Shown here in pieces: positions 12,845-40,979 of a stretch of 64,000 bases of DNA. Source of the DNA: a virus. The notes under the pieces are model-generated. The model did no database searches. It saw only the letters and a program-made list of their open reading frames with translations, and was not told the origin of the DNA. The stretch lies in IMG/VR virus record IMGVR_UViG_3300013830_000222, positions 2,140 through 66,139 of that record, one strand, 5' to 3'. Positions within the stretch are counted from its first letter, which is position 1. Every line of letters starts with the position of its first letter. The translations under genes and the position numbers were made by a program.

Positions 12845-13999
12845 ATGCCTAAGGTTAATGTGAACATTCAACCTACGATTCTGAATTGGGTCTTAGAACA
12901 GACATCTGATGATTCTCTGGGCAGTCAGTTACGTGCCAGCATTAGCAATTGGATTGATGGCTCTAAAACTCCTACTTTTAATCAGATACAGGATCTAAGT
13001 AAAAAATCGCATATTCCATTGGGCTACTTTTTTCTAAAGGTGCCACCAGTTGAAAGTATTAATTTACTTGAATTTAGAACTATTGACAGTATTCAACTGG
13101 CAAAACCTAGCAGAGACCTGATAGATACCATCCATACTATGGAAGAAAGACAGGATTGGATGGCAAACTATAGAAAAGAACAGGAGCTCGATCCGCTTTC
13201 CTTTGTTGGCGCTGCAGAAAATGAAAAAGATCCGTATAAGGTGGCCAGCGCTATTCGGAAGGCAATTGGGATAGAAGAAACATGGTCTATGACAGCATCT
13301 TCCATAAGGGATGCGTTTAATTCTATCAGAGCAGCATTGGAAGGAAGTGGAGTCTTAATAATGATGAGTGGTATTGTGGGTAACAATACTCATCGTCCAC
13401 TTAATATTGAAGAATTTCGTGCTTTTGCATTAATAAATAAATGGGCACCTTTAGTTTTTATTAACAGTGCAGATTCTCAAGGAGGGAAACTATTTTCTCT
13501 TTTACATGAGGTTGCGCATATATGGTGCGGACAAGATGATCTATTTAATGATAGGCAAGGATTATCTACAAAGCCACTAGAAACATTTTGTAATGCGGTA
13601 GCAGCAGAACTGCTTGTACCGAAGAGTAAGTTCTCTGAATGCTGGGAAGATAGTCGTGGTGATATATATGAGAAAATAGCTTCTTTAGCTATGAAGTTTC
13701 ATTGCGGTGAAACCGTTATAGCAAGAAAAGCATTGGATGCAGGTTTGATAGGGAAGAAAAATTATCAGAAGGTGGCAGATAACGCAATAGAAGGATTTAG
13801 AAAGGAAAAAGAGAAGGGAGGAAGTGGAGGCAATTTTTACGCAACTACTGAATCCAGGATAGATAGATCCTTCATGCGTGCAATTTGCGATGGAATAAGT
13901 TCTGGAACTCTAAGCTATACAGACGCTTATCGGCTTACAGATACAAGCCGAAAGACATTTGATAAGGTTGCGAAAGAACTGGGAGGGGTCATATGGTAA
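12845..13999 (+). CDS. HTH + ImmA/IrrE-family Zn metallopeptidase (moron)
   Basis: N-terminal XRE-like HTH (W..GSKTPTFNQ), LLHEVAH HExxH motif, ETFCNAVAAELL. Low GC. Confidence 0.88.
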   Translation: MPKVNVNIQPTILNWVLEQTSDDSLGSQLRASISNWIDGSKTPTFNQIQDLSKKSHIPLGYFFLKVPPVESINLLEFRTIDSIQLAKPSRDLIDTIHTMEERQDWMANYRKEQELDPLSFVGAAENEKDPYKVASAIRKAIGIEETWSMTASSIRDAFNSIRAALEGSGVLIMMSGIVGNNTHRPLNIEEFRAFALINKWAPLVFINSADSQGGKLFSLLHEVAHIWCGQDDLFNDRQGLSTKPLETFCNAVAAELLVPKSKFSECWEDSRGDIYEKIASLAMKFHCGETVIARKALDAGLIGKKNYQKVADNAIEGFRKEKEKGGSGGNFYATTESRIDRSFMRAICDGISSGTLSYTDAYRLTDTSRKTFDKVAKELGGVIW

Positions 14000-24227: not shown

Positions 24228-24887
24228 ATGGATATCAAAGAAGCAATCAAAGCAAGGCATATGGTTCGCAAATATACGGATAAAACGATACCGGCTGATC
24301 TCGTAGAGCAGCTGAATGCCAGAATCACGGAAAACAATGAAAAGTATGGGATGAATATAAAGCTTGTCACAGGAAAGTCGGATGGTTTAAGTGCTGTTGC
24401 CAAACTGGTGCTGGCAAGAGGCGTCAACAACTATATAGCCCTTTCCGGCAAGGATACACCGGAGCTTGATGAGAAAGCAGGTTATTGCGGTGCGGATGTT
24501 ATGCTTTATGCGCAGACGCTTGGTCTCAACACCTGGTGGGTCGGCGGCATGTATTCAAGGAAAGGCGTAAGCAATAATACTGATGGTGAAAGACCTGCCG
24601 GGATCATAGCAATCGGCTACGGACAGACACAGGGCGTTCAGCATAAGATGAAGACACCATCGGATATCAGTTCCTATGAGGGTGATGAACCACAGTGGTT
24701 CAAGGACGGCGTGGAAGCCCTTCTTTTAGCTCCGACTGCTCTTAACAAGATGGCTTTTACAGTAAAGGGAACCGGAAATAAGGTTTCTCTTTCCTGCGAA
24801 AATGGTATTTTTTCCGGCGTTGATAAAGGAATTGGCAAATATTTCTTTGAGGCTGGTGCAGGAAAAGAAAACTTCGAGTGGGTGTAA
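24228..24887 (+). CDS. nitroreductase-family protein (TM1586-like)
   Basis: AIKARHMVRKY, AQTLGLNTWWVGG, LAPTALN. Confidence 0.88.
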   Translation: MDIKEAIKARHMVRKYTDKTIPADLVEQLNARITENNEKYGMNIKLVTGKSDGLSAVAKLVLARGVNNYIALSGKDTPELDEKAGYCGADVMLYAQTLGLNTWWVGGMYSRKGVSNNTDGERPAGIIAIGYGQTQGVQHKMKTPSDISSYEGDEPQWFKDGVEALLLAPTALNKMAFTVKGTGNKVSLSCENGIFSGVDKGIGKYFFEAGAGKENFEWV

Positions 24888-24889
24888 TT

Positions 24890-25591
24890 ATGGATGAGCA
24901 GATCAGAAAACTACAGCAGATGCTGGATGAGAGCCGGTTTACACTGGTTGTTACCGGTTCCGGGATTTCCGTTGCATCAGGCATTCCGAGCATGCACGGG
25001 CTTAATCTGGCAGAAACGCTGCAGTTTGTATCCAACAATGTTCTTAGGGCAACGCCGGAGCATTACTACAGGGTAGCAAGGCGTTCGTTTTTGAAGGCTA
25101 TGTTTGAGAACGGTCCCAGCCTGTCACATAAGAAGCTTTCTGAGCTTGAGCAAAAAGGTAAAGTGCATGGGATTATCACGACAAACCTTGATAATCTGCA
25201 CAGCATGGCCGGTTCTGTAAATGTGGCGGAGATCCAGGGAAGCTTTGCAGTAAATACCTGCCTGAAATGCGAAAAACAGAATTTTGATGTAAATATATGG
25301 AATCAGGGTAAGGCACCAAGATGTGAATGCGGAGGGCTTTACAGCTGCTGGCCTGTTTATGCACACATCGGTCTTTATGAACCGGACGCGGCGAAAGCGA
25401 GGACATGGGCAGCAAAGGCTGAACTGGTTATTCTTGTCGGCGCAGAAGGGGCATATGGCGGTGTCTATTGGAATTCAATCCCATCTTCAGCAAGGATTGT
25501 TCAAATCAATCCGGGAAAGACACAATTTGATTCATCCGCCATTCTGAATATCAGAAAACCGTGTGATGAGGTATTTGCTTTGTTGGACTGA
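24890..25591 (+). CDS. Sir2/sirtuin-family protein with non-canonical active site
   Basis: TGSGISVASGIP, ITTNLDNLH, EIQGS, CLKC..CECG zinc ribbon, INP. Confidence 0.88.
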   Translation: MDEQIRKLQQMLDESRFTLVVTGSGISVASGIPSMHGLNLAETLQFVSNNVLRATPEHYYRVARRSFLKAMFENGPSLSHKKLSELEQKGKVHGIITTNLDNLHSMAGSVNVAEIQGSFAVNTCLKCEKQNFDVNIWNQGKAPRCECGGLYSCWPVYAHIGLYEPDAAKARTWAAKAELVILVGAEGAYGGVYWNSIPSSARIVQINPGKTQFDSSAILNIRKPCDEVFALLD

Positions 25592-30888: not shown

Positions 30889-32520
30889 ATGAATAAAGAG
30901 TACAGCGCCTGCATTTATGCCAGACTGTCCCGTGACGACGGAGACAAGCTGGAAAGTGACAGCATTATCAATCAAAGAGCCCTGATCAGGGACTATCTCA
31001 AAAAGCATCCGGAGATCCATATCGTTTCTGAAAAGACTGATGATGGATTCTCCGGAGTCAATTTCGACAGACCAGCCTTCAAGGAGATGATGGATGAGAT
31101 CCGCTCCGGGAAGGTCAATTGTGTTGTCGTCAAGGATCTTTCCCGTTTTGGAAGAAATTATATCGAGGCTGGCAATTATATCGAGAAGGTGTTCCCGTTT
31201 ATGGGAGTGCGCTTCATCGCCATCAATGACAGCTATGACAGCCTGGACAGGAACCAGGCGGATTCTCTGATTATTCCCTTCAAGAATCTGATCAATGATG
31301 CTTACTGCAAGGACATCTCTGTGAAGATCCGCAGCCAGCTCGAGATCAAGAGGAAGAATGGCGAGTACATTGGCGCCTTTGTCGTATACGGCTATCTGAA
31401 GGATCCGGAGAATAAGAACAAGATTATCGTTGATCCCTTTGCGTCTGAGGTGGTCCGGGCGATCTTCAAATGGAAAATCGAGGGCATGAGCCAGAGCAGG
31501 ATTGCGGACAAGCTGAACGCGCAGGGAGTCCTCTGCCCGCTGGAGTATAAGAAGTCGATTGGCGTGAACTTGAAGAGCAGCTTCCAGGTCAGGAAGAAGG
31601 CCATGTGGTCTCCGGTCTCTGTGGAGCGGATCCTGAAAAATGAAATCTATACAGGGGTCCTGCTGCAGGGGAAGAGGAGCACTCCGAACTATAAGGTCAA
31701 GAAGCTGATGCTGAAGGATGAGTCAGAATGGGTGAGAGCGGAGGATACACATGAAGCCATTATCGACCGCGAGACCTTTGAGAATGTCCAGATCATTCTG
31801 AAGCATGATATCCGGATTGCTCCGCAGGAGGATATGGTCTACCCGCTTTCGGGCTATGTGCGGTGCGGCGATTGCAGACAGAGCATGGTCCGCAAGTCCT
31901 TTGTACATGGAAAGAAGCGCTACAGCTATTTCGTCTGCTCGACACATAAGCGCGGCAAGGGCTGCTCTACACATTCCATTGGCGTGGAAGAGCTGACAGC
32001 AGCAGTTCTCACTGCGACCAGAAGGCATGTGGACACCATCCTTGAGATGGCAAAAACGATTGATTATGTTGAGGCGATTCCTGAGCGTCAGAGAGGCGTC
32101 CTTAATTATGACGCGCAGATCGTCAGGCTTAAGGAGGATATTGAGAAAAACGAGACGTTCAAGCTGAAGCTTTATGAGAACCTGCAGGAGGGTATGATCA
32201 GCCAGGATGAGTATTTTCTCTTCAAGAAAAGCTATGCAGAGAAGATCAAGAAGGCGCAGCAGTCCATAAAGCTCCTGCAGGAGGACCGGGAGCAGATGGT
32301 AAGCAGCAGCCGGGAGAGGCTTTCCTGGATGGATGTCTTTAAGAAGCATGCAAATCTCACGGAGCTGGAGCGAACAGCGGTCGTCGATATGATCGAGTGC
32401 ATCTATGTCTATGAGGACCAGCGAATCGAGGTCGTTTTCAGATACGCAGATGAATGCGAGAAAATCATCAAATTTCTGCAGAATGTTCCTGAAGACGTAA
32501 AAGCCCGGGCAGCAGTGTAA
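30889..32520 (+). CDS. large serine recombinase 1
   Basis: YARLSRDD, DDGFSG..FDRP, KDLSRFGR, C-terminal zinc ribbon and coiled coil. Confidence 0.95.
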   Translation: MNKEYSACIYARLSRDDGDKLESDSIINQRALIRDYLKKHPEIHIVSEKTDDGFSGVNFDRPAFKEMMDEIRSGKVNCVVVKDLSRFGRNYIEAGNYIEKVFPFMGVRFIAINDSYDSLDRNQADSLIIPFKNLINDAYCKDISVKIRSQLEIKRKNGEYIGAFVVYGYLKDPENKNKIIVDPFASEVVRAIFKWKIEGMSQSRIADKLNAQGVLCPLEYKKSIGVNLKSSFQVRKKAMWSPVSVERILKNEIYTGVLLQGKRSTPNYKVKKLMLKDESEWVRAEDTHEAIIDRETFENVQIILKHDIRIAPQEDMVYPLSGYVRCGDCRQSMVRKSFVHGKKRYSYFVCSTHKRGKGCSTHSIGVEELTAAVLTATRRHVDTILEMAKTIDYVEAIPERQRGVLNYDAQIVRLKEDIEKNETFKLKLYENLQEGMISQDEYFLFKKSYAEKIKKAQQSIKLLQEDREQMVSSSRERLSWMDVFKKHANLTELERTAVVDMIECIYVYEDQRIEVVFRYADECEKIIKFLQNVPEDVKARAAV

Positions 32521-32531
32521 GGAGGTGCGCT

Positions 32532-34241
32532 ATGGCAAGAAAGAGCAGAAGGTCTGTAGCCACTGTTGCTGCAGAGAAGAATGATGCCGCTGTCGTTTAT
32601 TATCCGACGGCGATCTATGCCAGGCTTTCTATTGAGAATAGCGGCAAGGACGATGAGGGAGATTCTATCGCAAACCAGATCAGCTTTTGCAGAGATTACC
32701 TGAAGAACGCAAGTGATCTGAGGCTATACGATATTTATGAGGACAACGGCCAGAAGGGAACCCGGTTCGACCGACCGGAATTTCAGCGCCTGATGGATGA
32801 TGTCAGAGCCGGGAAGGTGAAGTGCATTGTAGTCAAGGACCTGTCCCGATTCGGAAGAAATTATCTTGAGGCGGGAGAGTACCTGGAGAAGATTTTTCCC
32901 TTTATGGGAGTCAGATTCATTTCCATCACGGATGGCTACGACAGTCTTCTGTCTAGTGACGCAGAGGGTGCCCTGATGATCCCACTGAAAAACATGATCA
33001 ACGATGTGTACGCCAAGGACATCTCCAGGAAGATCATTACTTCCTTCCGGGCAAGGCAGGAGAAGGGAGAATTCCTCCCGGCCTTCGCTCCGTATGGTTA
33101 CATGAAGTCACAGACACAGCAATATCGCTATGAGCCTGATCCGGTGACGGCTCCGTATGTAAAGCTGATCTTCGAATGGAAGGCAGCAGGCGTCAGCCAC
33201 AGTGAAATCTGTAATCGGCTCAATGACATGGGAGCCATTACGCCTGCCAGACGGAAGGTCGAGCTGGGAATCTGGAAGGCTGAGAAATACAAGCATACGA
33301 TCTGGCACGGCAGAAGCATATTGGATATCCTGCAGAATCCGACCTATACGGGAGCCATTGTCTATGGAAGGATGCCGAAGTCTCTGTATCAGGGGATCAA
33401 GATCCATAGAGGGAAGCCCGAGGAGCTGAGAATCCTCCCGGAGATGCATGAACCGCTTGTAAGCCAAGAACTTTTTGATCAGGTCCAGGCTATTTTTGCG
33501 GAGACGAAGAAGAATGCCAACAGGAAGATGGAGCAGACTGCAGACGTCAGAAGAAGGATCATAAATCTCTTCAAGGGAAAGATCTACTGTGGCGACTGCG
33601 GAAAACGAATGCGGTTTATCAAAGGACAGGGAAAGGATAAGCAATATACCTTCATCTCCTACGCCTGCGGCGGGGATATCGATACCGGGTACCGAAATTG
33701 CAGCAGGCACCACATCAAATATGGAGATGTTTGCGACACTGCACTATCTGTCATCAGGGAGCAGCTGGAGCATGCTCTGAATCAGGAGGAAATGCTTCGT
33801 CGACTGAAGGGAACAAGAAGCGAGCGGAATCTTCTGGACCAGTATAACGGCGATTACAATCATGCGCTTCGGGAGGTTCAGAAGGTGAATGCCCGGCGTG
33901 AAGGACTGTACGAAAGCTTTACGGAAGGCGTTCTTGATGCCGATGAATACAGATACGCCAAGGCTGAATATGAGAGGAAGGCAGAAGAGCTGCAGAAAAA
34001 GCTCGACGCCGCGAAGAAGAAAAGGGATCAGCTGGAGCAGATTCTCTCAGGGAACAGCAACTGGCTTGAGGCTCTTCACAGAGCAGAGAATGCCAGTGAG
34101 CTCGATCAGAGTCTGGTGGACGATCTGATCAGCAGAGTTCTTGTTTATGAGGATGAACGGGTGGAAATCGAGCTGAATTATTCTGATGAAAAGAATGCCT
34201 TTGAAGCCGTTCTGGCAAAACTCTTGAAGGAGGCGGATTGA
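32532..34241 (+). CDS. large serine recombinase 2
   Basis: YARLSIEN, KDLSRFGR, CGDCG. Confidence 0.95.
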   Translation: MARKSRRSVATVAAEKNDAAVVYYPTAIYARLSIENSGKDDEGDSIANQISFCRDYLKNASDLRLYDIYEDNGQKGTRFDRPEFQRLMDDVRAGKVKCIVVKDLSRFGRNYLEAGEYLEKIFPFMGVRFISITDGYDSLLSSDAEGALMIPLKNMINDVYAKDISRKIITSFRARQEKGEFLPAFAPYGYMKSQTQQYRYEPDPVTAPYVKLIFEWKAAGVSHSEICNRLNDMGAITPARRKVELGIWKAEKYKHTIWHGRSILDILQNPTYTGAIVYGRMPKSLYQGIKIHRGKPEELRILPEMHEPLVSQELFDQVQAIFAETKKNANRKMEQTADVRRRIINLFKGKIYCGDCGKRMRFIKGQGKDKQYTFISYACGGDIDTGYRNCSRHHIKYGDVCDTALSVIREQLEHALNQEEMLRRLKGTRSERNLLDQYNGDYNHALREVQKVNARREGLYESFTEGVLDADEYRYAKAEYERKAEELQKKLDAAKKKRDQLEQILSGNSNWLEALHRAENASELDQSLVDDLISRVLVYEDERVEIELNYSDEKNAFEAVLAKLLKEAD

Positions 34242-34242
34242 T

Positions 34243-35859
34243 ATGCGGGAAACTGTGATTGGAAAGTACATTCGCCTCTCTCAGGCTGATCGGGATCTGA
34301 TGAAGAAGAAAAGCAAGACGGAGAGCGAGAGCATTTCTCATCAGAGAGCCTTAATCCAGAACTATATCGAATCTGATCCGGAGCTGAAGGGCTGCCGGCA
34401 GGAGGAATTCTTCGATGACGGGTACAGCGGGACGAATTTTGACAGGCCATCCTTTGAGAGGCTGCTGCAGAAGATCCGCTCTGGCGAGATCAATTGTGTC
34501 ATCGTCAAGGACTTCTCCCGCTTTGGAAGAGATTATATCGAGCTGGGAGATTATCTGGAGAGGATCTTTCCCTTCCTGGGCGTGAGGTTCATTTCTGTCA
34601 ACGATCATTACGACAGCAACGATTACAAGGGTACGACTGGCGGACTGGATGTCGTCATGAAGAACATCGTTTATGACTACTACAGCAAGGACCTGTCCAT
34701 GAAGGTAAAAACAGCCAAGCGATCGAAGATGAAGCGCGGTGAGTACATGGGCGGACACATTCCCTACGGGATCATGAAGGATCCAGACAGGAAGAACAGC
34801 CTGATACCGGATCCGGAGGCGGCGGAGATCGTGAAGGAGATCTTCGGATATGCATTGAAGAAAATGAAGCAGAAGGATATTGTGGATACGCTGAATCAAA
34901 AGGGCTATGAGACTCCGGGAGCCTATTACCGCAGGAAGCATCCGGGATCGAAGAAATTTGCAAACGCTTCAGCTCTCAGCTGTTGGACGATGGACAATGT
35001 CCGAAATATTCTTCAGCAGGAAATGTATTACGGCGCTGTGGTCCAGCACAAGCGAGAAGGCATCGGCATTGGCTGTAAGCATACAAGAGCGATCCCGAAG
35101 GAGGAGCAGCTGATCGTTGAAGGCATGTTTGAGCCGATTGTCAGCAAGGAAACCTTCCTGGATGCTCAGAAGATTTTTCGAAGAGTAACAGGCAGGAAGA
35201 CGGCAGTGCCGTACGTGTATCCTCTGAAGAGTCATGTCAAGTGCGCCGTCTGCGGAAGGCGGCTGCAGTACAGATCGAATGAGATCAAAGGCGTCTATTA
35301 CAATTATTTCTGGTGCCCGCTGTCGAAATACCAGAATGGATCCCAGTGCTTTCCGGGCTATTACAGAGAGGATGACCTGAATAGGATTGTTCTGGAAGGA
35401 ATTCAGAAGCTTCAAGATCTGGCGGGACAGGCAGCGATGAAAACCTCCAGGAGTAAGGCCAATGCTGCAGATGAGAGACTGTCGAAGGCTCGCACGCTGA
35501 GTGACCTGCAGAAGGCACTGGAGCGGTGTGAGAACGATAAGTTTGCCAACGTAGACGCCATGATGTCGGGAGACATCAGCAAGGATCAATATCAGGAGCG
35601 CAGGAAGCTTCTGAATGATCAGGAGGAAGCACTGAAGAAACAGATTGCCGAAGCACAGAAGCGGGATTTTGATCCCAGGATGGAGCAGAGCGAGGAGGCA
35701 GCAGGTGTGATAGAAAAGCTCAGATCCTTCGATGGAGCGCAGGAGCTCACGCCGGAGATGGTGGGTGCACTGGTAAAGGAGGTGCGGGTCACGGATCCGG
35801 AGCACATCGAGATCCGGTGGAACTTCTCGGAAATGGTGATGGAATTCCTTACTGAATGA
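34243..35859 (+). CDS. large serine recombinase 3
   Basis: YIRLSQAD, DDGYSGTNFDRP, KDFSRFGR, CAVCG. Confidence 0.95.
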   Translation: MRETVIGKYIRLSQADRDLMKKKSKTESESISHQRALIQNYIESDPELKGCRQEEFFDDGYSGTNFDRPSFERLLQKIRSGEINCVIVKDFSRFGRDYIELGDYLERIFPFLGVRFISVNDHYDSNDYKGTTGGLDVVMKNIVYDYYSKDLSMKVKTAKRSKMKRGEYMGGHIPYGIMKDPDRKNSLIPDPEAAEIVKEIFGYALKKMKQKDIVDTLNQKGYETPGAYYRRKHPGSKKFANASALSCWTMDNVRNILQQEMYYGAVVQHKREGIGIGCKHTRAIPKEEQLIVEGMFEPIVSKETFLDAQKIFRRVTGRKTAVPYVYPLKSHVKCAVCGRRLQYRSNEIKGVYYNYFWCPLSKYQNGSQCFPGYYREDDLNRIVLEGIQKLQDLAGQAAMKTSRSKANAADERLSKARTLSDLQKALERCENDKFANVDAMMSGDISKDQYQERRKLLNDQEEALKKQIAEAQKRDFDPRMEQSEEAAGVIEKLRSFDGAQELTPEMVGALVKEVRVTDPEHIEIRWNFSEMVMEFLTE

Positions 35860-35870
35860 TGACAAAAATG

Positions 35871-35915
35871 AAAAGACCGGCTATTGCTTTCGGCAAGCAG
35901 TAGCCGGTCTTTTTT
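35871..35915. terminator. bidirectional intrinsic terminator
   Basis: AAAAGACCGGCTATTGCTT-TCGGC-AAGCAGTAGCCGGTCTTTTTT between convergent genes. Confidence 0.85.
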
Positions 35916-35918
35916 CGG

Positions 35919-36125
35919 CTAAGCAGCTTTGTATACGTCATTGTCATCCTCCCGTGCATATGACTCATTTGGATGAGTGACCTTGAGAGCGTAGACCGCT
36001 ACTCCAGAGCAGAAAAATGCAATGGCTGTGATTGCTGCCGGCCAACCTTCGAGACTGACATTGAGCTGAGTGTTTTTAATGAGGGTAGGGATGGTATCGA
36101 CTATCTGAGTGAGTTTGTTTTCCAT
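35919..36125 (-). CDS. small membrane protein divergent from the WYL gene
   Basis: 68 aa, AAAGGAGG RBS, one hydrophobic helix. Confidence 0.7.
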   Translation of the reverse strand: MENKLTQIVDTIPTLIKNTQLNVSLEGWPAAITAIAFFCSGVAVYALKVTHPNESYAREDDNDVYKAA

Positions 36126-36320
36126 GCTGGAAACCTCCTTTGTGGTGTTTGTCGTTTGTGCGGTACACTTTTTATGCTCTTATTGTAATTCTGGAAAAAT
36201 TAAATAGATAGAATCAGATTTAAAAATTTCACGACCCCTTAAATTTCAATAAATTACGTGATATATTAGAAAAAAGCAATTGTTTTGCGACCCCAAAACG
36301 GGGCTGTAGGAGACGCCACA

Positions 36321-37340
36321 TTGGAAAAGATAAATGTTTATGTACCGGAAAATATAGGGGCAATGCTTGAAAACGATGCCATGATGTTCGAGGTCTATAA
36401 AAAAGATGGCAGGACTGTTAATAGAAACAAATTCCTTGGCATGCTTATTAACGGGTATTATGCGGATTATGTGACGGAGGCAAGAACGGCATATGATAGG
36501 ATCCTTTCGACGATAAATACAGATAAGCTTAGTCCCAAAGAAAAAGAACATATTGCAAATAATATACTGAAGGCAGTTGTGCTTCCAGTTGTTCCATCAC
36601 GTAAAGGGAAGAATCCAACAAAGCTTTCAGTGAAACCTACTAAGGATACGGAAGCATTGATTGAACAGATTCTTTTGAATCTTGGCGGAGATGATTATAT
36701 TTCACAGTATTTCTGCCGCATGTTCATGAGCTATTGTGAAAAGCCTTTCAGTAAGAGAGAACAGATTGTATTTAAGAGTACTTTTGTAGAATTGCAACTA
36801 GCATGTGATGCTAAGAGAAGCATTACCTTTAAGACAATATGGAATACAAAAAAAATCCACGAAGTGATTCCATATAGAGTTGTGACCGGAACAGAAGAGA
36901 TGTTTAATTATCTCCTCTGCGCAGAACTAAACGAAACAACTGGAAATCAGGAAGCAAAAACATATCGATTGAATCGTATTGACAAGTTGAACTATGGGAG
37001 GAGCATGGCCTCAATTGACAATACTGTGCGAACACACTTGGATATGATGGTTCAGTATGGTCCACAGTATATGATTAATGATGAGGAAGAAACTTGTGTA
37101 AGGCTTACAGCTTCAGGACAGAGAAATTTCAGCCGAATATATTATGGCAGACCTGTGCTTGATAGAGTTGAAGAAAGAGAAGACGGACACTATTACTATT
37201 TTAAGGGTTCTAAAGATCAGGTATTTTTCTACTTCAGACGCTTTGGATATGATGATGCTGAAATTATTACGCCGGAGTCACTCAGAACAAAGATGATAGA
37301 ATTTCATTCGCGTGCTTGTGAAATGTACAAGAGGAAGTAA
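36321..37340 (+). CDS. WYL-domain protein (WYL1 / Cas13d-accessory-like architecture)
   Basis: IPYRVV...MFNYLLC, YRLNRI, LT..G...F..IYYGRP, YFRRFG.DAEII.PESLR. TTG start with AGGAG RBS. Confidence 0.85.
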   Translation: MEKINVYVPENIGAMLENDAMMFEVYKKDGRTVNRNKFLGMLINGYYADYVTEARTAYDRILSTINTDKLSPKEKEHIANNILKAVVLPVVPSRKGKNPTKLSVKPTKDTEALIEQILLNLGGDDYISQYFCRMFMSYCEKPFSKREQIVFKSTFVELQLACDAKRSITFKTIWNTKKIHEVIPYRVVTGTEEMFNYLLCAELNETTGNQEAKTYRLNRIDKLNYGRSMASIDNTVRTHLDMMVQYGPQYMINDEEETCVRLTASGQRNFSRIYYGRPVLDRVEEREDGHYYYFKGSKDQVFFYFRRFGYDDAEIITPESLRTKMIEFHSRACEMYKRK

Positions 37341-37352
37341 AGGGTTATTACT

Positions 37353-39113
37353 ATGGATAATTCGAAAATTTATGAAGAAATAATGTTGAATGGATGCTTT
37401 AATAAAATGAAGTCCATACGCAATGCCTGGAGCGACAATAAGAAGGAGAGTGTGTATGGCCTGCCATCTATTATTGACATAGGTGGATCCGATTATAGAT
37501 CCTATTCTTTCATTATGAAACAGTGCGAATCACTCATATATGAAATGATTCCATATTTAGTGATTGAACTAATGAGAGCATATAATATAACAGCTCAGTT
37601 TTACAAAATAAATCAGAACGATGCTCATATATATTCTGTGTCTGAAAATAAAAATTGGCCTGATTATGTTGAGCAGTCTAATAGAAAACAGGTATTTGCT
37701 TTTAGCTGCAAAGGTGATCAGAAGGAAGGACTGTATATTTTTAAGGAGTTTGGAATTGGAAATCATATCCCGAAGAGTCTTCTTGAAACAATTAAGAAGG
37801 AAAATGGTTTAAAACTTCACTGCTATGTTTCGATAGTTGAAAATGATGCATATTCTGAAGTAATTAATCACAATGACGATGAAAATGATCCGACCAGAGG
37901 AACTGGCATATACTCACTCAAGCAATTTTTCGATTTCTTTTTTGGGCCAGAAGAATATGCAGTGTTTAAAAAGTTCGCAGATATTTTCGCGGAGAAGGTT
38001 CGTGATTATTTTGGGTTTGAGATAGTCAGGACAATAAAACCTAATACATTGCATAATTTCAGAAGTGTAGTTAGAGATGATATAGCTTCCTTCGATGTAA
38101 CAGAGCTTGATTCAGATTCAAGAATCTCTGATAGTCAACGAAACCTAATTGAAGAGCAGTTCTTCAAAGAGAAAAATTACGAGATTCTAACTGGATCAAG
38201 TGATTTTGCGCAAAGCTATATGACAGCGGAATGGCTTTATAAATCGTTATCCGGTGCGGGTAAAATTGATTTGACTGCTATTGCAATGGGATATTTCAAG
38301 GCTATAGAACAGCTCCTGTTCCATTACCTTGAACTTCACACCATAGAAAAGGATGGGGTAACCCGCACGGTTTTTGTTGGTCGAGGCAAACCTTATGCTG
38401 ATCCAAGGGGAAACGCGGATCTGACTGATGCACTCATAAGTGATGAAGAAAAAACAAAAGATATAAATCTGGGATCTCTTACGGGCATGTTTGGCTATTA
38501 CGATGGAAGAAGAGGCCAATACTATTGGAGAAACCGAGATTTGCTGGTTAGTGGAATTGATAATGATACCTATGAGTTCATAATAGACACTTTTACCGGC
38601 ATAGTTGGTCTGCGAAATGGTTTCTTCCACAAACATAATCTCACAGATTGGTCGAAAGTAGTTGATGCCAGGAATAGTGCACGGCTGATATTCTATTTGC
38701 TGCTTGGAGCATACAAAATAAATGAAAGCGATAAAACAGCGCTCGGACTGATTCAAGTGGATGAGCATGATGACTATTATAAATTATGTGATTACATGAA
38801 TGAAAAAGCCTATGGAATTAGCGGACTTGATATTCCAATTTTCTATTTAAACGGACAAACGGATCCATATGGATTCTGGATGGGGTATCGTGACGACTAC
38901 ATAGAATATGACAATTACGGTGAACCTGTGTACTCTGGCGTATACTTCAGGGAATTACATGATAAGCAGCACATCAGAAAGGCTACGAGGGAAAATTTAC
39001 CTACAGAAATATGGGAAGGAACAATGAGTATAAGCAGGAGCGTTCCGATTGAAATCAAACCTTCCGGACCTCAGAAGAAGATTTATCAAGATGGAAAATT
39101 TGTTGGCGAATGA
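37353..39113 (+). CDS. putative HEPN-domain protein
   Basis: 586 aa, low GC. GYFKAIEQLL helix and LRNGFFH (RxxxxH, nt 38613-38630). Confidence 0.6.
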   Translation: MDNSKIYEEIMLNGCFNKMKSIRNAWSDNKKESVYGLPSIIDIGGSDYRSYSFIMKQCESLIYEMIPYLVIELMRAYNITAQFYKINQNDAHIYSVSENKNWPDYVEQSNRKQVFAFSCKGDQKEGLYIFKEFGIGNHIPKSLLETIKKENGLKLHCYVSIVENDAYSEVINHNDDENDPTRGTGIYSLKQFFDFFFGPEEYAVFKKFADIFAEKVRDYFGFEIVRTIKPNTLHNFRSVVRDDIASFDVTELDSDSRISDSQRNLIEEQFFKEKNYEILTGSSDFAQSYMTAEWLYKSLSGAGKIDLTAIAMGYFKAIEQLLFHYLELHTIEKDGVTRTVFVGRGKPYADPRGNADLTDALISDEEKTKDINLGSLTGMFGYYDGRRGQYYWRNRDLLVSGIDNDTYEFIIDTFTGIVGLRNGFFHKHNLTDWSKVVDARNSARLIFYLLLGAYKINESDKTALGLIQVDEHDDYYKLCDYMNEKAYGISGLDIPIFYLNGQTDPYGFWMGYRDDYIEYDNYGEPVYSGVYFRELHDKQHIRKATRENLPTEIWEGTMSISRSVPIEIKPSGPQKKIYQDGKFVGE

Positions 39114-39148
39114 TATCCAGCCACCAAAAATGTGGCGGAGAATATGTG

Positions 39149-39189
39149 TTGACCTATCTTGACACAAGCTGATGAATGCCACCGGTCGA
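39149..39189. other. probable attR junction of prophage 1
   Basis: Non-hsdR sequence TTGACCTATCTTGACACAAGCT is joined to hsdR codons GATGAATGCCAC (DECH). Imperfect arms TTGACC / GGTCGA. GC content shifts here. Confidence 0.55.
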
Positions 39190-40979
39190 TCTACAATGTG
39201 TGGTCGCAGGTGCTGGAATACTTTGATGCTTTCATTATCGGCCTGACCGCCACACCAGAGAAGAGGACATTTGCGTTCTTTAACCAGAATGTGGTCAGCG
39301 AATACTCCCGGGAGAAAGCAATCATTGACCGGGTTAATGTCGGCGAGGACATCTATCTGATCAATACCGAAATCACCCAGAATGGTGCTATGATCATGAA
39401 ACGTCTGGCAGAATACCGGGATCGTCTGACCCGGGCAAAGCGCTGGCGGCAGATGGATGAAGATATGGCCTATAATCCGGGAATGCTGGATGTGGACGTT
39501 GTGAATCCGAGCCAGATCCGTGCTGTCATCCAGACATACCGGGACAAGGTATTTACGGAGCTGTTCCCGCGAAGAAAGAATGTGCCGAAGACACTGATCT
39601 TTGCCAAAAATGACAGCCATGCCGATGATATTGTTCAGATCGTCAGAGAAGTGTTCGGTGAGGGAAATGAATTCTGCCAGAAGATTACTTGCAAGGCAAA
39701 GAAGGCAGACGAGGCTCTGAGCAATTTCCGCAATCAGTTTTATCCTCGCATTGCAGTGACGGTCGAAATGATCGCTACCGGAACGGACGTGAAACCTCTG
39801 GAGTGTCTGATCTTTATGCGTGATGTCCGGAGCAAAGGCCACTACGAGCAGATGCTCGGTCGCGGAACCAGAGTGCTGAAGCTGGAAGACCTGAAGATGG
39901 TTTCCGGTGATGACGCTACAGAGAAAGATCACTTTGTCGTAATCGATGCGGTCGGCGTAACAAAATCCAAGAAGACGGAAACAAGGCCACTGGAGTATAA
40001 GCCCCATGTAAGTCTGACAGAGCTTATGAAACGGGCATCGCTCGGAACAAAAGATCCGGAGATTCTTACATCACTGGCAAATCGTCTAATCCGGCTGAGC
40101 ACAAAACTGAAACCAGAAGAACTTGACGAGTTTGAAGCAAAAGTCGGAAAGCCGATCAGTACTGTTGCAGAAGACCTGCTTAACGCATTCGATGAGGATG
40201 TAGTTGCCGCGAGAGCCGGAGTTGAGCTTGACCCGGACAGAGATCCAAGCCCGGAAGAACAGGTGAAACTTGACGCTGCTCAGGAGGAGCTGATCAAAGA
40301 AGCAGAACAGCCTTTCAACGATCCGGACAACCGGGATTATATTGAAGACGTCCGGAAGAAGCACGAGCAGATCATCGACAATGTAAACATCGACTCCGTA
40401 ACTTATGCTGGGTGGGACAAAGACCGTGACAGCAACGCTGATCAGGTGATCAAGAGCTTTCATGAATTTATCGAAGAGAACAAGGATGAGATTCTTGCGC
40501 TGCGGATTATTTACGATCAGAGATTCGCAGACCGCCCGATGGCGATTCGGAAGCTGAAGGAGCTGTATGAAAAGCTTCAGCAGGAGCATATCACCATTGA
40601 ACGGCTCTGGGATTGCTATGCCATTAAGAAGCCTGACAAAGTGAAGCGTGGCACGATCGGACAGCTGGCGGATCTGATTTCCATCATTCGTTTCGAGATG
40701 GGCTATGCAGACAACCTGCAGCCGTTTGCCGACAAGGTAAACTATAACTTCATGCAGTGGACGCTGAAACGGAACGCCGGTGCTGTGCATTTCACAGACG
40801 AACAGATGGAGTGGCTGCGTTTGGTGAAGGATCACATTGCTGCGAGCCTGAGCATCAGCGCGGACGATCTGGATTATACGCCATTTGACCGGAAGGGTGG
40901 GCTCGGCAGATTTTATGAAGTGTTCGGTGATCAGTATCTGGAGATACTTGATGAGATGAATATAGAATTGGTGGCGTAA
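39159..40979 (+). pseudogene. hsdR: type I restriction subunit HsdR, 3' part only
   Basis: Begins at DECHRSIY, then GLTATP, KTLIFA, TGTDVK, QMLGRGTR and an EcoEI-type C-terminus. Nuclease domain and Walker A are absent. Confidence 0.9.

Follow-up and report, generated by a model that had tools for sequence, protein, structure and literature searches.

A cassette of three genes was investigated in a 64,000-nt stretch of DNA (IMG/VR virus record IMGVR_UViG_3300013830_000222, positions 2,140 to 66,139), which is called the window in the following. At window positions 35919-39113 it comprises a gene for a membrane mini-protein (MEM), a divergent gene for a WYL protein of the WYL1 type and a gene for a 586-aa protein with a HEPN-like domain, referred to as the effector. 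This three-gene unit is a real, recurrent and uncatalogued module of predicted function. Furthermore, pairs of short boxes were newly found at the promoters of WYL1-like genes. In our judgement the chances are about even that the cassette is horizontally acquired prophage cargo encoding a self-regulated HEPN-nuclease module.

The boxes have the consensus ACRRCCCC and flank, at a spacing of 54-57 nt, a -10-like element upstream of WYL1-like genes. The intergenic regions between MEM and WYL genes of eight loci have little else in common. Their order is TTCAC(R)(R)CCCC, a TGATATAAT-like element about 27 nt further on, and a second box ACGACCCC followed by N5-GGGG. All eight loci with MEM, WYL and HEPN genes carry the pair (spacing 54-56 nt). 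It was also detected upstream of the WYL gene of locus L088 and of distant WYL1-like genes of the genus g75 (L179, L180 and L182; spacing 55-56 nt). For g75 as a whole the pair was present in 21 of 30 loci and at least one box in all 30.

The scan for same-strand pairs 50-60 nt apart covered 217 loci (4.54 Mb counting both strands). Box 2 lay 0-120 nt upstream of a WYL1-like start in all 37 pairs detected, and no pair was located elsewhere; some of these loci overlap, so that the 37 pairs should not be taken as that many independent events. As a control, the single degenerate 8-mer occurred about once per 9.9 kb. No pair was found within 300 nt upstream of the effector gene in any of 130 loci without WYL. 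Thus, the element belongs to the WYL1-like gene and not to the effector, and the WYL1-like protein looks like a self-regulating transcription factor. The simplest reading of the boxes is a putative pair of operators, one on each side of the -10, in a promoter under autoregulation.

The WYL protein of the window was compared with known families and structures. Its homologues are mostly 339-343 aa long. TTG 36321 is the likely start, because AGGAG lies just upstream and the resulting 339 aa correspond to the usual length of the homologues. The PADLOC model for WYL matched the protein with E 1.7e-10, and RspWYL1 (PDB 6oaw) was its sole sequence match in the PDB (phmmer E 3.9e-11). A profile of 41 WYL sequences matched 6oaw with E 3.1e-20 (positions 96-341 against 124-389). 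The AF2 model (pLDDT 90.8) shows a strand at 16-20 with helices, a short strand at 112-116, then a beta-barrel and an alpha/beta C domain. With this model 6oaw was again the top match of Foldseek over the full length (E 1.2e-15, TM 0.64/0.59, 384 columns), followed by DriD (9.7e-9), PafBC (2.6e-7), CapW (1.3e-5) and BrxR (3.1e-4). The N-terminus was modelled as strand-helix-helix, and the model as a whole aligned end to end with 6oaw, which bears a ribbon-helix-helix (RHH) domain. No helix-turn-helix (HTH) family of Pfam matched, and the match to Pfam WCX was weak (E 0.15). The modelled build is thus an RHH-like N-terminal domain, a WYL beta-barrel and a C-terminal dimerisation-type domain.

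RspWYL1 is described as a homodimer of RHH, WYL and C-terminal domain (CTD) that binds ssRNA and interacts with and stimulates Cas13d (Yan 2018 PMC5935466; Zhang 2019 PMC6547453; both in excerpts). Since a protein of this architecture tops the sequence, profile and Foldseek comparisons, the original prediction was correct in assigning the WYL protein to the WYL1 type with an N-terminus other than a winged HTH. Members of the WYL1-like family were found in 7 of 399 genomes of the window's class and in 49 of 100 genomes of g75; in phage records no relatives of the WYL protein were found.

The effector contains the motifs KAIEQLL (residues 316-322) and LRNGFFH (420-426). In an alignment of 53 sequences only E293, W294, D306, K316, E319, Q320, R421, N422, H426 and N429 are invariant. 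Of 250 relatives in an alignment to the family HMM, 241 extend over the site; R421 and H426 occur together in 240 of these 241, and N422 likewise in 240. HEPN domains are recognised by a conserved Rx4-6H motif in which R is followed by a polar residue (Anantharaman 2013). R421-N422-x3-H426 is such a motif, and the middle domain of the effector has the helical-bundle fold in the predicted structure (AF2, pLDDT 89). An HEPN-like fold with RxxxxH, as originally proposed for this protein, is supported, the R-N-x3-H being essentially invariant. Among solved structures the nearest fold is the toxin RnlA/LsoA of toxin/antitoxin (TA) systems. At E <= 1e-3 Foldseek found no match in PDB or BFVD, where the fold searches did not extend to the C-terminal domain (about 470-586), and sequence searches of the PDB with the single protein and the profile gave nothing. 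The ESM Atlas returned just unnamed clusters and leads below 0.8 to PD-(D/E)xK families. Cas13d was not among the fold matches listed, and no likeness to it was seen.

According to these models the family consists of a restriction-endonuclease (REase)-like N domain, an HEPN-like middle domain with the invariant R-N-x3-H and a beta-rich C domain. The N domain is read as a possible sensor or binding domain; it has no invariant acidic/lysine triad, and all ten invariant residues are located in the HEPN-like domain. The word-indexed search yielded 176 clusters of relatives at 90% identity. With the exhaustive profile search 806, 681 and 408 clusters at 50% identity were obtained at E <= 1e-3, 1e-10 and 1e-30, respectively. 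The relatives come from gut and rumen Bacillota and Actinomycetota and from Streptococcus phages; no relatives were found in plasmids. Shortened forms of 262 aa (L014-L016, L109 and L111 of Streptococcus; L067) keep the HEPN and C-terminal parts only, corresponding to query residues 293-576. These shortened forms adjoin a gene for Lit (lipoprotein intramolecular transacylase).

The association of WYL and effector genes was examined in 161 loci of the effector family (64 from species-representative genomes, 17 from IMG/VR and 80 from metagenomes). A WYL1-like neighbour was detected with the WYL-family HMM in 15 of them, in 12 cases immediately upstream on the same strand and in three immediately downstream and convergent (L142-L144). 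Clustering by BLAST revealed a second, unrelated upstream family in four loci. Its member in L012 matches WYL in Pfam and PADLOC, that in L114 matches Pfam WYL and WCX, that in L155 is nearly identical in sequence to the latter, and that in L099 has no Pfam match and is counted through the BLAST cluster only. A WYL-domain neighbour of either family, WYL1-like (15) or HTH-WYL(-WCX) (four), is thus present in 19 of 161 loci. Two unrelated WYL architectures in the same slot upstream of the effector fit a generic regulatory role.

The WYL link is commoner among the closest relatives of the window effector. Judged by equal size of the longest contig as a proxy, a WYL cluster is on the same contig for 18 effector clusters, and 14 of these belong to the 44 clusters with at least 49% identity. 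WYL and effector genes are 12 nt apart in the window and -22 to +15 nt apart in the listed examples of a 12-locus cluster. The WYL protein of L107 is 59% identical to that of the window, its effector 35% and the neighbouring recombinase 67%; for L029 the values are 53% (WYL) and 24% (effector). The identities of WYL protein and effector are thus uncoupled between loci. Most effector genes stand alone, with WYL and MEM behaving like an optional addition. The idea of a stand-alone WYL-HEPN pair holds insofar as eight distinct loci contain the whole three-gene unit; obligatory it is not, with a WYL1-like gene in 15 of 161 loci.

MEM is a single-pass protein with a conserved N(T/H)xLNxSLxGWPAAV motif and a hydrophobic helix. 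Homologues occupy the same divergent slot in L007, L010/L105, L029, L086, L107, L115 and L178, that is, in seven of the ten WYL-upstream loci that are long enough and, in addition, in L178 from IMG/VR. Nine clusters of homologues were counted in the protein collection. MEM matched no family in Pfam, NCBIfam, PADLOC or PHROGs, and the ESM Atlas held nothing useful. By analogy only, it may be likened to Csx28, the membrane protein of Cas13b. Hydrophobic mini-proteins were also observed in loci without WYL, directly upstream of the effector on the same strand (L011:3101-3325, L013:6529-6759, L018:9374-9541, L024:9444-9602, L036:9553-9717, L065:9252-9416 and L131:2032-2217). They have about 35-75 aa with one predicted membrane helix and form at least two unrelated sequence groups.

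Several results weigh against a self-regulated HEPN-nuclease module. Among 78 near-full-length effector loci a WYL1-like gene is upstream in 11, downstream in two and missing despite at least 1100 nt of upstream flank in 52, while 13 were unjudgeable. Hence, 52 of the 65 full-length loci with enough flank are without it. On a quick maximum-likelihood tree the WYL-linked effectors are scattered, with eight changes of upstream state, at least six of them forced by well-supported branches. The WYL protein is thus dispensable for the effector. DNA binding by the WYL protein is called into question by the RHH domain of RspWYL1, which is reported in excerpts as a binder of ssRNA that disfavours dsDNA (Zhang 2019 PMC6547453). 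The -10-like element was not listed by a consensus promoter scan, and box 2 probably lies in the 5'UTR and might function as RNA or be recognised by a different protein. For the effector no match was detected in Pfam, NCBIfam or PADLOC at E <= 1, and no meaningful match in PHROGs. Comparison of the family profile with RnlA of E. coli K-12 by hhalign was negative (probability 0.24%, E 0.25), so that the effector is RnlA-like in fold only. PADLOC holds no model for this family, and a phage-defence phenotype is known for no member.

In the proposed mechanism of the self-regulated module, a dimer of the WYL1-like protein would bind the two boxes and repress or poise its own operon (WYL and effector) together with the divergent MEM gene. 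A nucleic-acid ligand arising in infection by another phage or from RNA damage would bind to the WYL/CTD surface, and transcription would be released or activated. Candidate ligands are ssRNA or RNA fragments, by analogy with RspWYL1, or ssDNA, as in other WYL factors. The effector would dimerise through its HEPN domains and cleave RNA, either tRNA or mRNA, so that the cell or the invading phage is arrested. Its REase-like and C-terminal domains may act as sensor or autoinhibitory parts, which would explain that most family members work without a WYL partner. MEM is possibly a co-induced membrane effector or anchor. RNase activity and anti-phage defence are what we infer for the effector.

It was also considered that the WYL1-like protein might bind ssRNA and the effector directly, presenting substrate or stimulating cleavage as in type VI-D systems, with DNA binding being secondary. 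This is compatible with the self-regulated module and seems unlikely. The nearest solved relative of the WYL protein, RspWYL1, does bind ssRNA and stimulate Cas13d in the published excerpts, and the WYL and effector genes are tightly coupled to translation, but an unrelated HTH-WYL family takes the same slot and the conserved boxes track the WYL gene. WYL1-type genes were also found in g75 beside R-N-x3-H proteins of about 890, 469 and 447 aa. Nevertheless, the uncoupled identities in L107 and L029 are hard to square with a specific protein interface, and the effector usually stands alone. The original prediction that the WYL protein controls the HEPN protein is therefore retained in part: the cis-element points to a protein that is in the first place an autoregulating DNA-binding transcription factor and need not stimulate its partner directly as in Cas13d.

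A type II TA system, with the RHH-bearing WYL protein neutralising an HEPN toxin and autorepressing the operon, and with defence brought about by decay of the antitoxin, is regarded as improbable. The layout with an upstream RHH gene, a 12-nt gap and operator-like boxes is classic for type II, the nearest fold of the effector is a TA toxin, and a Panacea/MqsA antitoxin gene occurs in the same slot in L022. An obligatory co-occurrence of toxin and antitoxin was not found, however, with 52 WYL-less loci among 78, and the phage copies are solo genes. These WYL-less and solo copies indicate that the effector is not constitutively toxic. WYL1-like proteins with the same boxes also appear to regulate non-toxin RtcB operons, and 339 aa with a ligand-binding domain are atypical for an antitoxin. 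It is likewise improbable that, with R-N-x3-H used otherwise, the effector acts on DNA via its REase-like domain or serves the prophage, e.g. in the control of integration or excision beside the serine recombinases: the N domain is without an invariant triad and all invariant residues are in the HEPN-like part, 138 of 161 loci are without a recombinase, and shortened forms such as those of Streptococcus keep the HEPN part.

WYL1-like genes in g75 were examined regarding their neighbours. In L179:6752-10732, L180:4914-7692 and L182:1923-4711 a distant WYL1-like gene is divergent from a DUF2828/DUF7788 (vWA-like) gene. The latter is followed by a gene for the RNA ligase RtcB in L179; in L181 an AAA/M41-like gene was found instead. 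The layout of WYL1-like gene and DUF2828/DUF7788-RtcB looks like a WYL-regulated RNA-repair operon, which about half of the genus would have, judged by the WYL gene. RtcR-RtcBA, in which a CARF protein senses damaged tRNA and regulates RNA repair (Makarova 2014, in excerpt), resembles these box-bearing loci, divergent from DUF2828/DUF7788 operons and with RtcB in one of them. As far as the excerpt goes, they differ in the sensor fold, WYL instead of CARF, and in the DNA-binding domain; the comparison concerns relatives and not the window cassette.

A close WYL1-like relative in genome G401 (E 1e-131) is convergent with genes for proteins of 897 and 469 aa, each with one R-N-x3-H. Mutually homologous proteins of about 880-900 aa with a single RN(A/H/D)ASH near the C-terminus are encoded beside WYL1-type genes in L217:8423-12192, L219:1126-5558, L221:3266-8479 and L222:6210-9385. 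A second protein encoded in L221 has 469 aa, the motif RNGIGH and a SEC-C-like tail. Furthermore, CRISPR-like repeat arrays and WYL genes are accompanied by genes for proteins of 447-449 aa, in which RN(S/V)AAH is found near residue 383 (L215:6140-7928, L216:10293-12092 and L220:2632-4990). No sequence match in the PDB was obtained for the proteins of about 900 aa, which are thus not callable as Cas13d. With hhalign the effector family showed no significant similarity to the 469-aa protein or to the 897-aa protein (probability 0.75%); the block TAEWLY..YFKAIEQ was aligned to the latter and is a lead only.

The recurrence of WYL1-type regulators with an R-N-x3-H protein or an RNA-repair operon supports the general idea of the original prediction and a Cas13d helper drawn from such a pool. 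These neighbours make an evolutionary link to type VI-D accessories plausible. A wider scenario is tentative and, in our opinion, rather unlikely as a whole. WYL1-like proteins may be RHH transcription factors that sense RNA or RNA damage and act on an operator of constant layout, with two copies of ACRRCCCC about 55 nt apart. Modules that cleave or repair RNA would have acquired such factors several times, namely the 586-aa REase-HEPN effector, the R-N-x3-H proteins of about 890 and 469 aa, RtcB operons and, in one offshoot, Cas13d. WYL1 of Cas13d would then descend from the regulator of a CRISPR-less HEPN system, and the window cassette would be a complete CRISPR-independent RNA-targeting immune module with a co-regulated membrane mini-protein.

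The gene context of the effector family was compared among the 161 loci. A large serine recombinase is encoded within 3 kb in 23 of them. Distant relatives were detected in seven Streptococcus phage records, as solo genes. In Streptococcus phage Javan405 a lysin gene, two recombinase genes and the effector gene, the last in the record, follow the synteny of the window. In the Collinsella loci L037-L054 the effector relative is flanked by a divergent gene for 326-327 aa and a downstream GmrSD type IV restriction gene, which looks like a small mobile defence islet. The 327-aa upstream gene was rejected as a WYL gene; it looks like a tyrosine recombinase, its C-terminal LGH..TT.RY being a motif which we take to be tyrosine-recombinase-like. 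Upstream of the effector relative in L022 (8542-9555) an MqsA-type zinc-ribbon/HTH protein is fused to a SocA/Panacea antitoxin domain, an independent hint of toxicity in the effector family. In L032 an AAA_13 ATPase gene is located upstream. Recombinases, GmrSD, the antitoxin and the phage synteny fit mobile, conflict-related cargo; a role in defence fits this context and is not proven by it.

The features of the cassette are listed in Table 1. From position 824 on, the window is a single 63-kb contig of a 3.27-Mb genome that is 91% complete. The prophage encodes a D5-type primase, SNF2 helicase, terminase, portal, capsid and tape measure, as well as a holin, a GH25 lysin and three large serine recombinases (30889-35859) upstream of the cassette. 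The GC content of the cassette DNA (36000-38999) is 0.33-0.39, in contrast to 0.47-0.52 in the flanks. The hsdR open reading frame (ORF; 39159-40979) is without its N-terminal part, as Pfam ResIII matches only at profile positions 132-163 of 164 (residues 5-34), and is followed by hsdS, hsdM and an Mrr-type gene. Because the effector stop is followed after 45 nt by the truncated hsdR, the cassette is the last cargo before the junction of prophage and host. The location of a low-GC cassette between recombinases and attachment (att) junction, as first described, is thereby borne out, and the described layout of a divergent 68-aa MEM, WYL, a 12-nt gap and a 586-aa protein with KAIEQLL and LRNGFFH agrees with the ORF list. 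Just past the effector stop, in the 45 nt ahead of the truncated hsdR, an inverted repeat GCCAC-N-GTGGC was observed (39096-39117), possibly a terminator remnant or part of an attachment site. Further prophage cargo (window 24228-25591 and 12845-13999) comprises a TM1586-type nitroreductase gene and a Sir2-family gene among the tail genes, and an M78 (IrrE/ImmA-type) peptidase gene between terminase and portal.

Table 1 Positions of the cassette features in the window
Feature	Position	Strand	Basis or remark
Inverted repeat, 19 nt, bidirectional terminator-like	35871..35913	.	Repeat search, 95% complementary; parts last recombinase gene from cassette
MEM, gene for 68-aa membrane mini-protein	35919..36125	-	ORF; divergent from WYL gene
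Box 1, TTTCACGACCCC, core ACGACCCC at 36231-36238	36227..36238	+	Proposed operator half-site upstream of -10
Extended -10-like element TGATATATT	36259..36267	+	Sequence; conserved offset between boxes
WYL gene, longest ORF, 351 aa	36285..37340	+	ORF list
Box 2, GCGACCCC, then N5 + GGGG (CCCC-AAAAC-GGGG palindrome)	36287..36303	+	56 nt after box 1, about 18 nt before start codon region
WYL1-like gene, likelier start TTG 36321, 339 aa	36321..37340	+	AGGAG at 36308-36312, homologue lengths
Effector gene, 586 aa	37353..39113	+	ORF; begins 12 nt past WYL stop
Effector N-terminal domain, aa 1-222	37353..38018	+	Predicted restriction-endonuclease-like fold without invariant catalytic triad
Effector HEPN-like domain, aa 223-455	38019..38717	+	R421 codon 38613-38615, H426 codon 38628-38630
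Effector C-terminal beta-rich domain, aa about 470-586	38760..39113	+	AF2 secondary structure; conserved YSGxYF, SGPxKxIY
Junction of cassette/prophage end with 5'-truncated hsdR	39114..39158	.	ORFs and Pfam

No cas genes adjoin the cassette, the neighbours being recombinase genes, MEM, the gene of the 586-aa protein and hsdR. The cas1 loci of the genome, type II-A (Cas9, Cas1, a Cas2-sized ORF, Csn2) and I-E (Cas3, Cse1, Cas7), are located on other contigs. The cassette is not linked to CRISPR-Cas, in agreement with the original prediction, in which no cas genes or array were visible. No candidate for Cas13 matched in the genome, whose assembly of 91% completeness leaves absence unproven. Two ORFs of at least 700 aa with distant R-x4-H pairs were discarded as Cas13; one is an oxidoreductase and the other (1202 aa) matched nothing. 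This 1202-aa ORF (G000:C19:40520-44128, identical with L170:521-4129, minus strand) contains four R-x4-H motifs and gave no Pfam, PADLOC or PDB sequence match. In a bovine-gut metatranscriptome one RNA-library contig of 254 nt matches 37193-37446 exactly and bridges the junction of WYL and effector genes; two other runs contained no match. The contig is a weak hint, compatible with co-transcription of both genes and too little to claim transcription.

The cassette was compared with known systems. RspWYL1 (PDB 6OAW) shares with the window WYL protein the RHH-like N domain, the Sm-like WYL barrel and the alpha/beta C domain, and both are paired with an HEPN-type protein. In contrast, the window protein is encoded outside a CRISPR locus, its identity to RspWYL1 is about 19% in the Foldseek alignment, and its partner has one HEPN motif instead of two and no visible likeness to Cas13d. 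The window family also has paired boxes at its own promoter, whereas boxes were found at none of seven g75 WYL genes closer to RspWYL1 (e.g. L217, E 2.6e-21 to 6oaw). RnlA/RnlB and LsoA/LsoB, HEPN TA systems of the RNase LS type directed against T4 (E. coli prophage CP4-57), show no likeness at the sequence level. Furthermore, the effector has an REase-like N domain and a WYL protein as upstream partner, and no small ORF of the RnlB/LsoB type lies downstream of it in the 45 nt before the hsdR ORF.

BrxR, CapW, DriD and PafBC are WYL-domain transcription factors controlling defence or stress genes. Similar to the window protein, they have a WYL fold with a C-terminal extension and a gene immediately upstream of the controlled system. 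They also have operator-like sites at their own promoter, for which the paired boxes are candidates in the window family. In four effector loci the place of the WYL1-like gene is taken by an HTH-WYL-WCX protein of this kind. The window protein differs in being RHH-like and not of the winged-HTH type, and its nearest relative binds, according to the published excerpts, ssRNA and not ssDNA. Solo HEPN proteins of abortive infection include ApeA and AbiD/F. HepS of the Salmonella prophage Gifsy-1 is likewise a single-HEPN protein of a prophage, which both senses and executes (Sargen et al. 2026, PMC13043305, in excerpt). Like HepS, most effector relatives are solo genes in prophages or islands; in contrast, the window copy adds a WYL regulator and a membrane protein, and HepS, ApeA and AbiD/F show no sequence or fold match among the matches listed and a different domain build. 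WYL proteins that regulate defence systems are a known kind, and so are HEPN proteins of prophages that act in abortive infection, such as HepS. The literature searched contained no description of a pairing between a WYL1-like protein and an HEPN protein other than Cas; the WYL tree of Yan 2018 might hold such cases.

The putative two-box operator makes the regulation of the cassette directly testable. If the effector were inert or non-defensive, the cassette would be an ordinary prophage moron with a WYL regulator. If the proposed module is true, a sizeable uncatalogued family of HEPN effectors (about 800 clusters at 50% identity) would join the anti-phage repertoire, and its ligand-gated expression switch and RNase would be a compact combination for tool building. 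A WYL1-type protein, known only as a booster of Cas13d, would work outside CRISPR and have a concrete DNA operator, bearing on how WYL1 acts. Nucleic-acid-sensing WYL regulators would be tied to operons of both RNA cleavage and RNA repair (RtcB).

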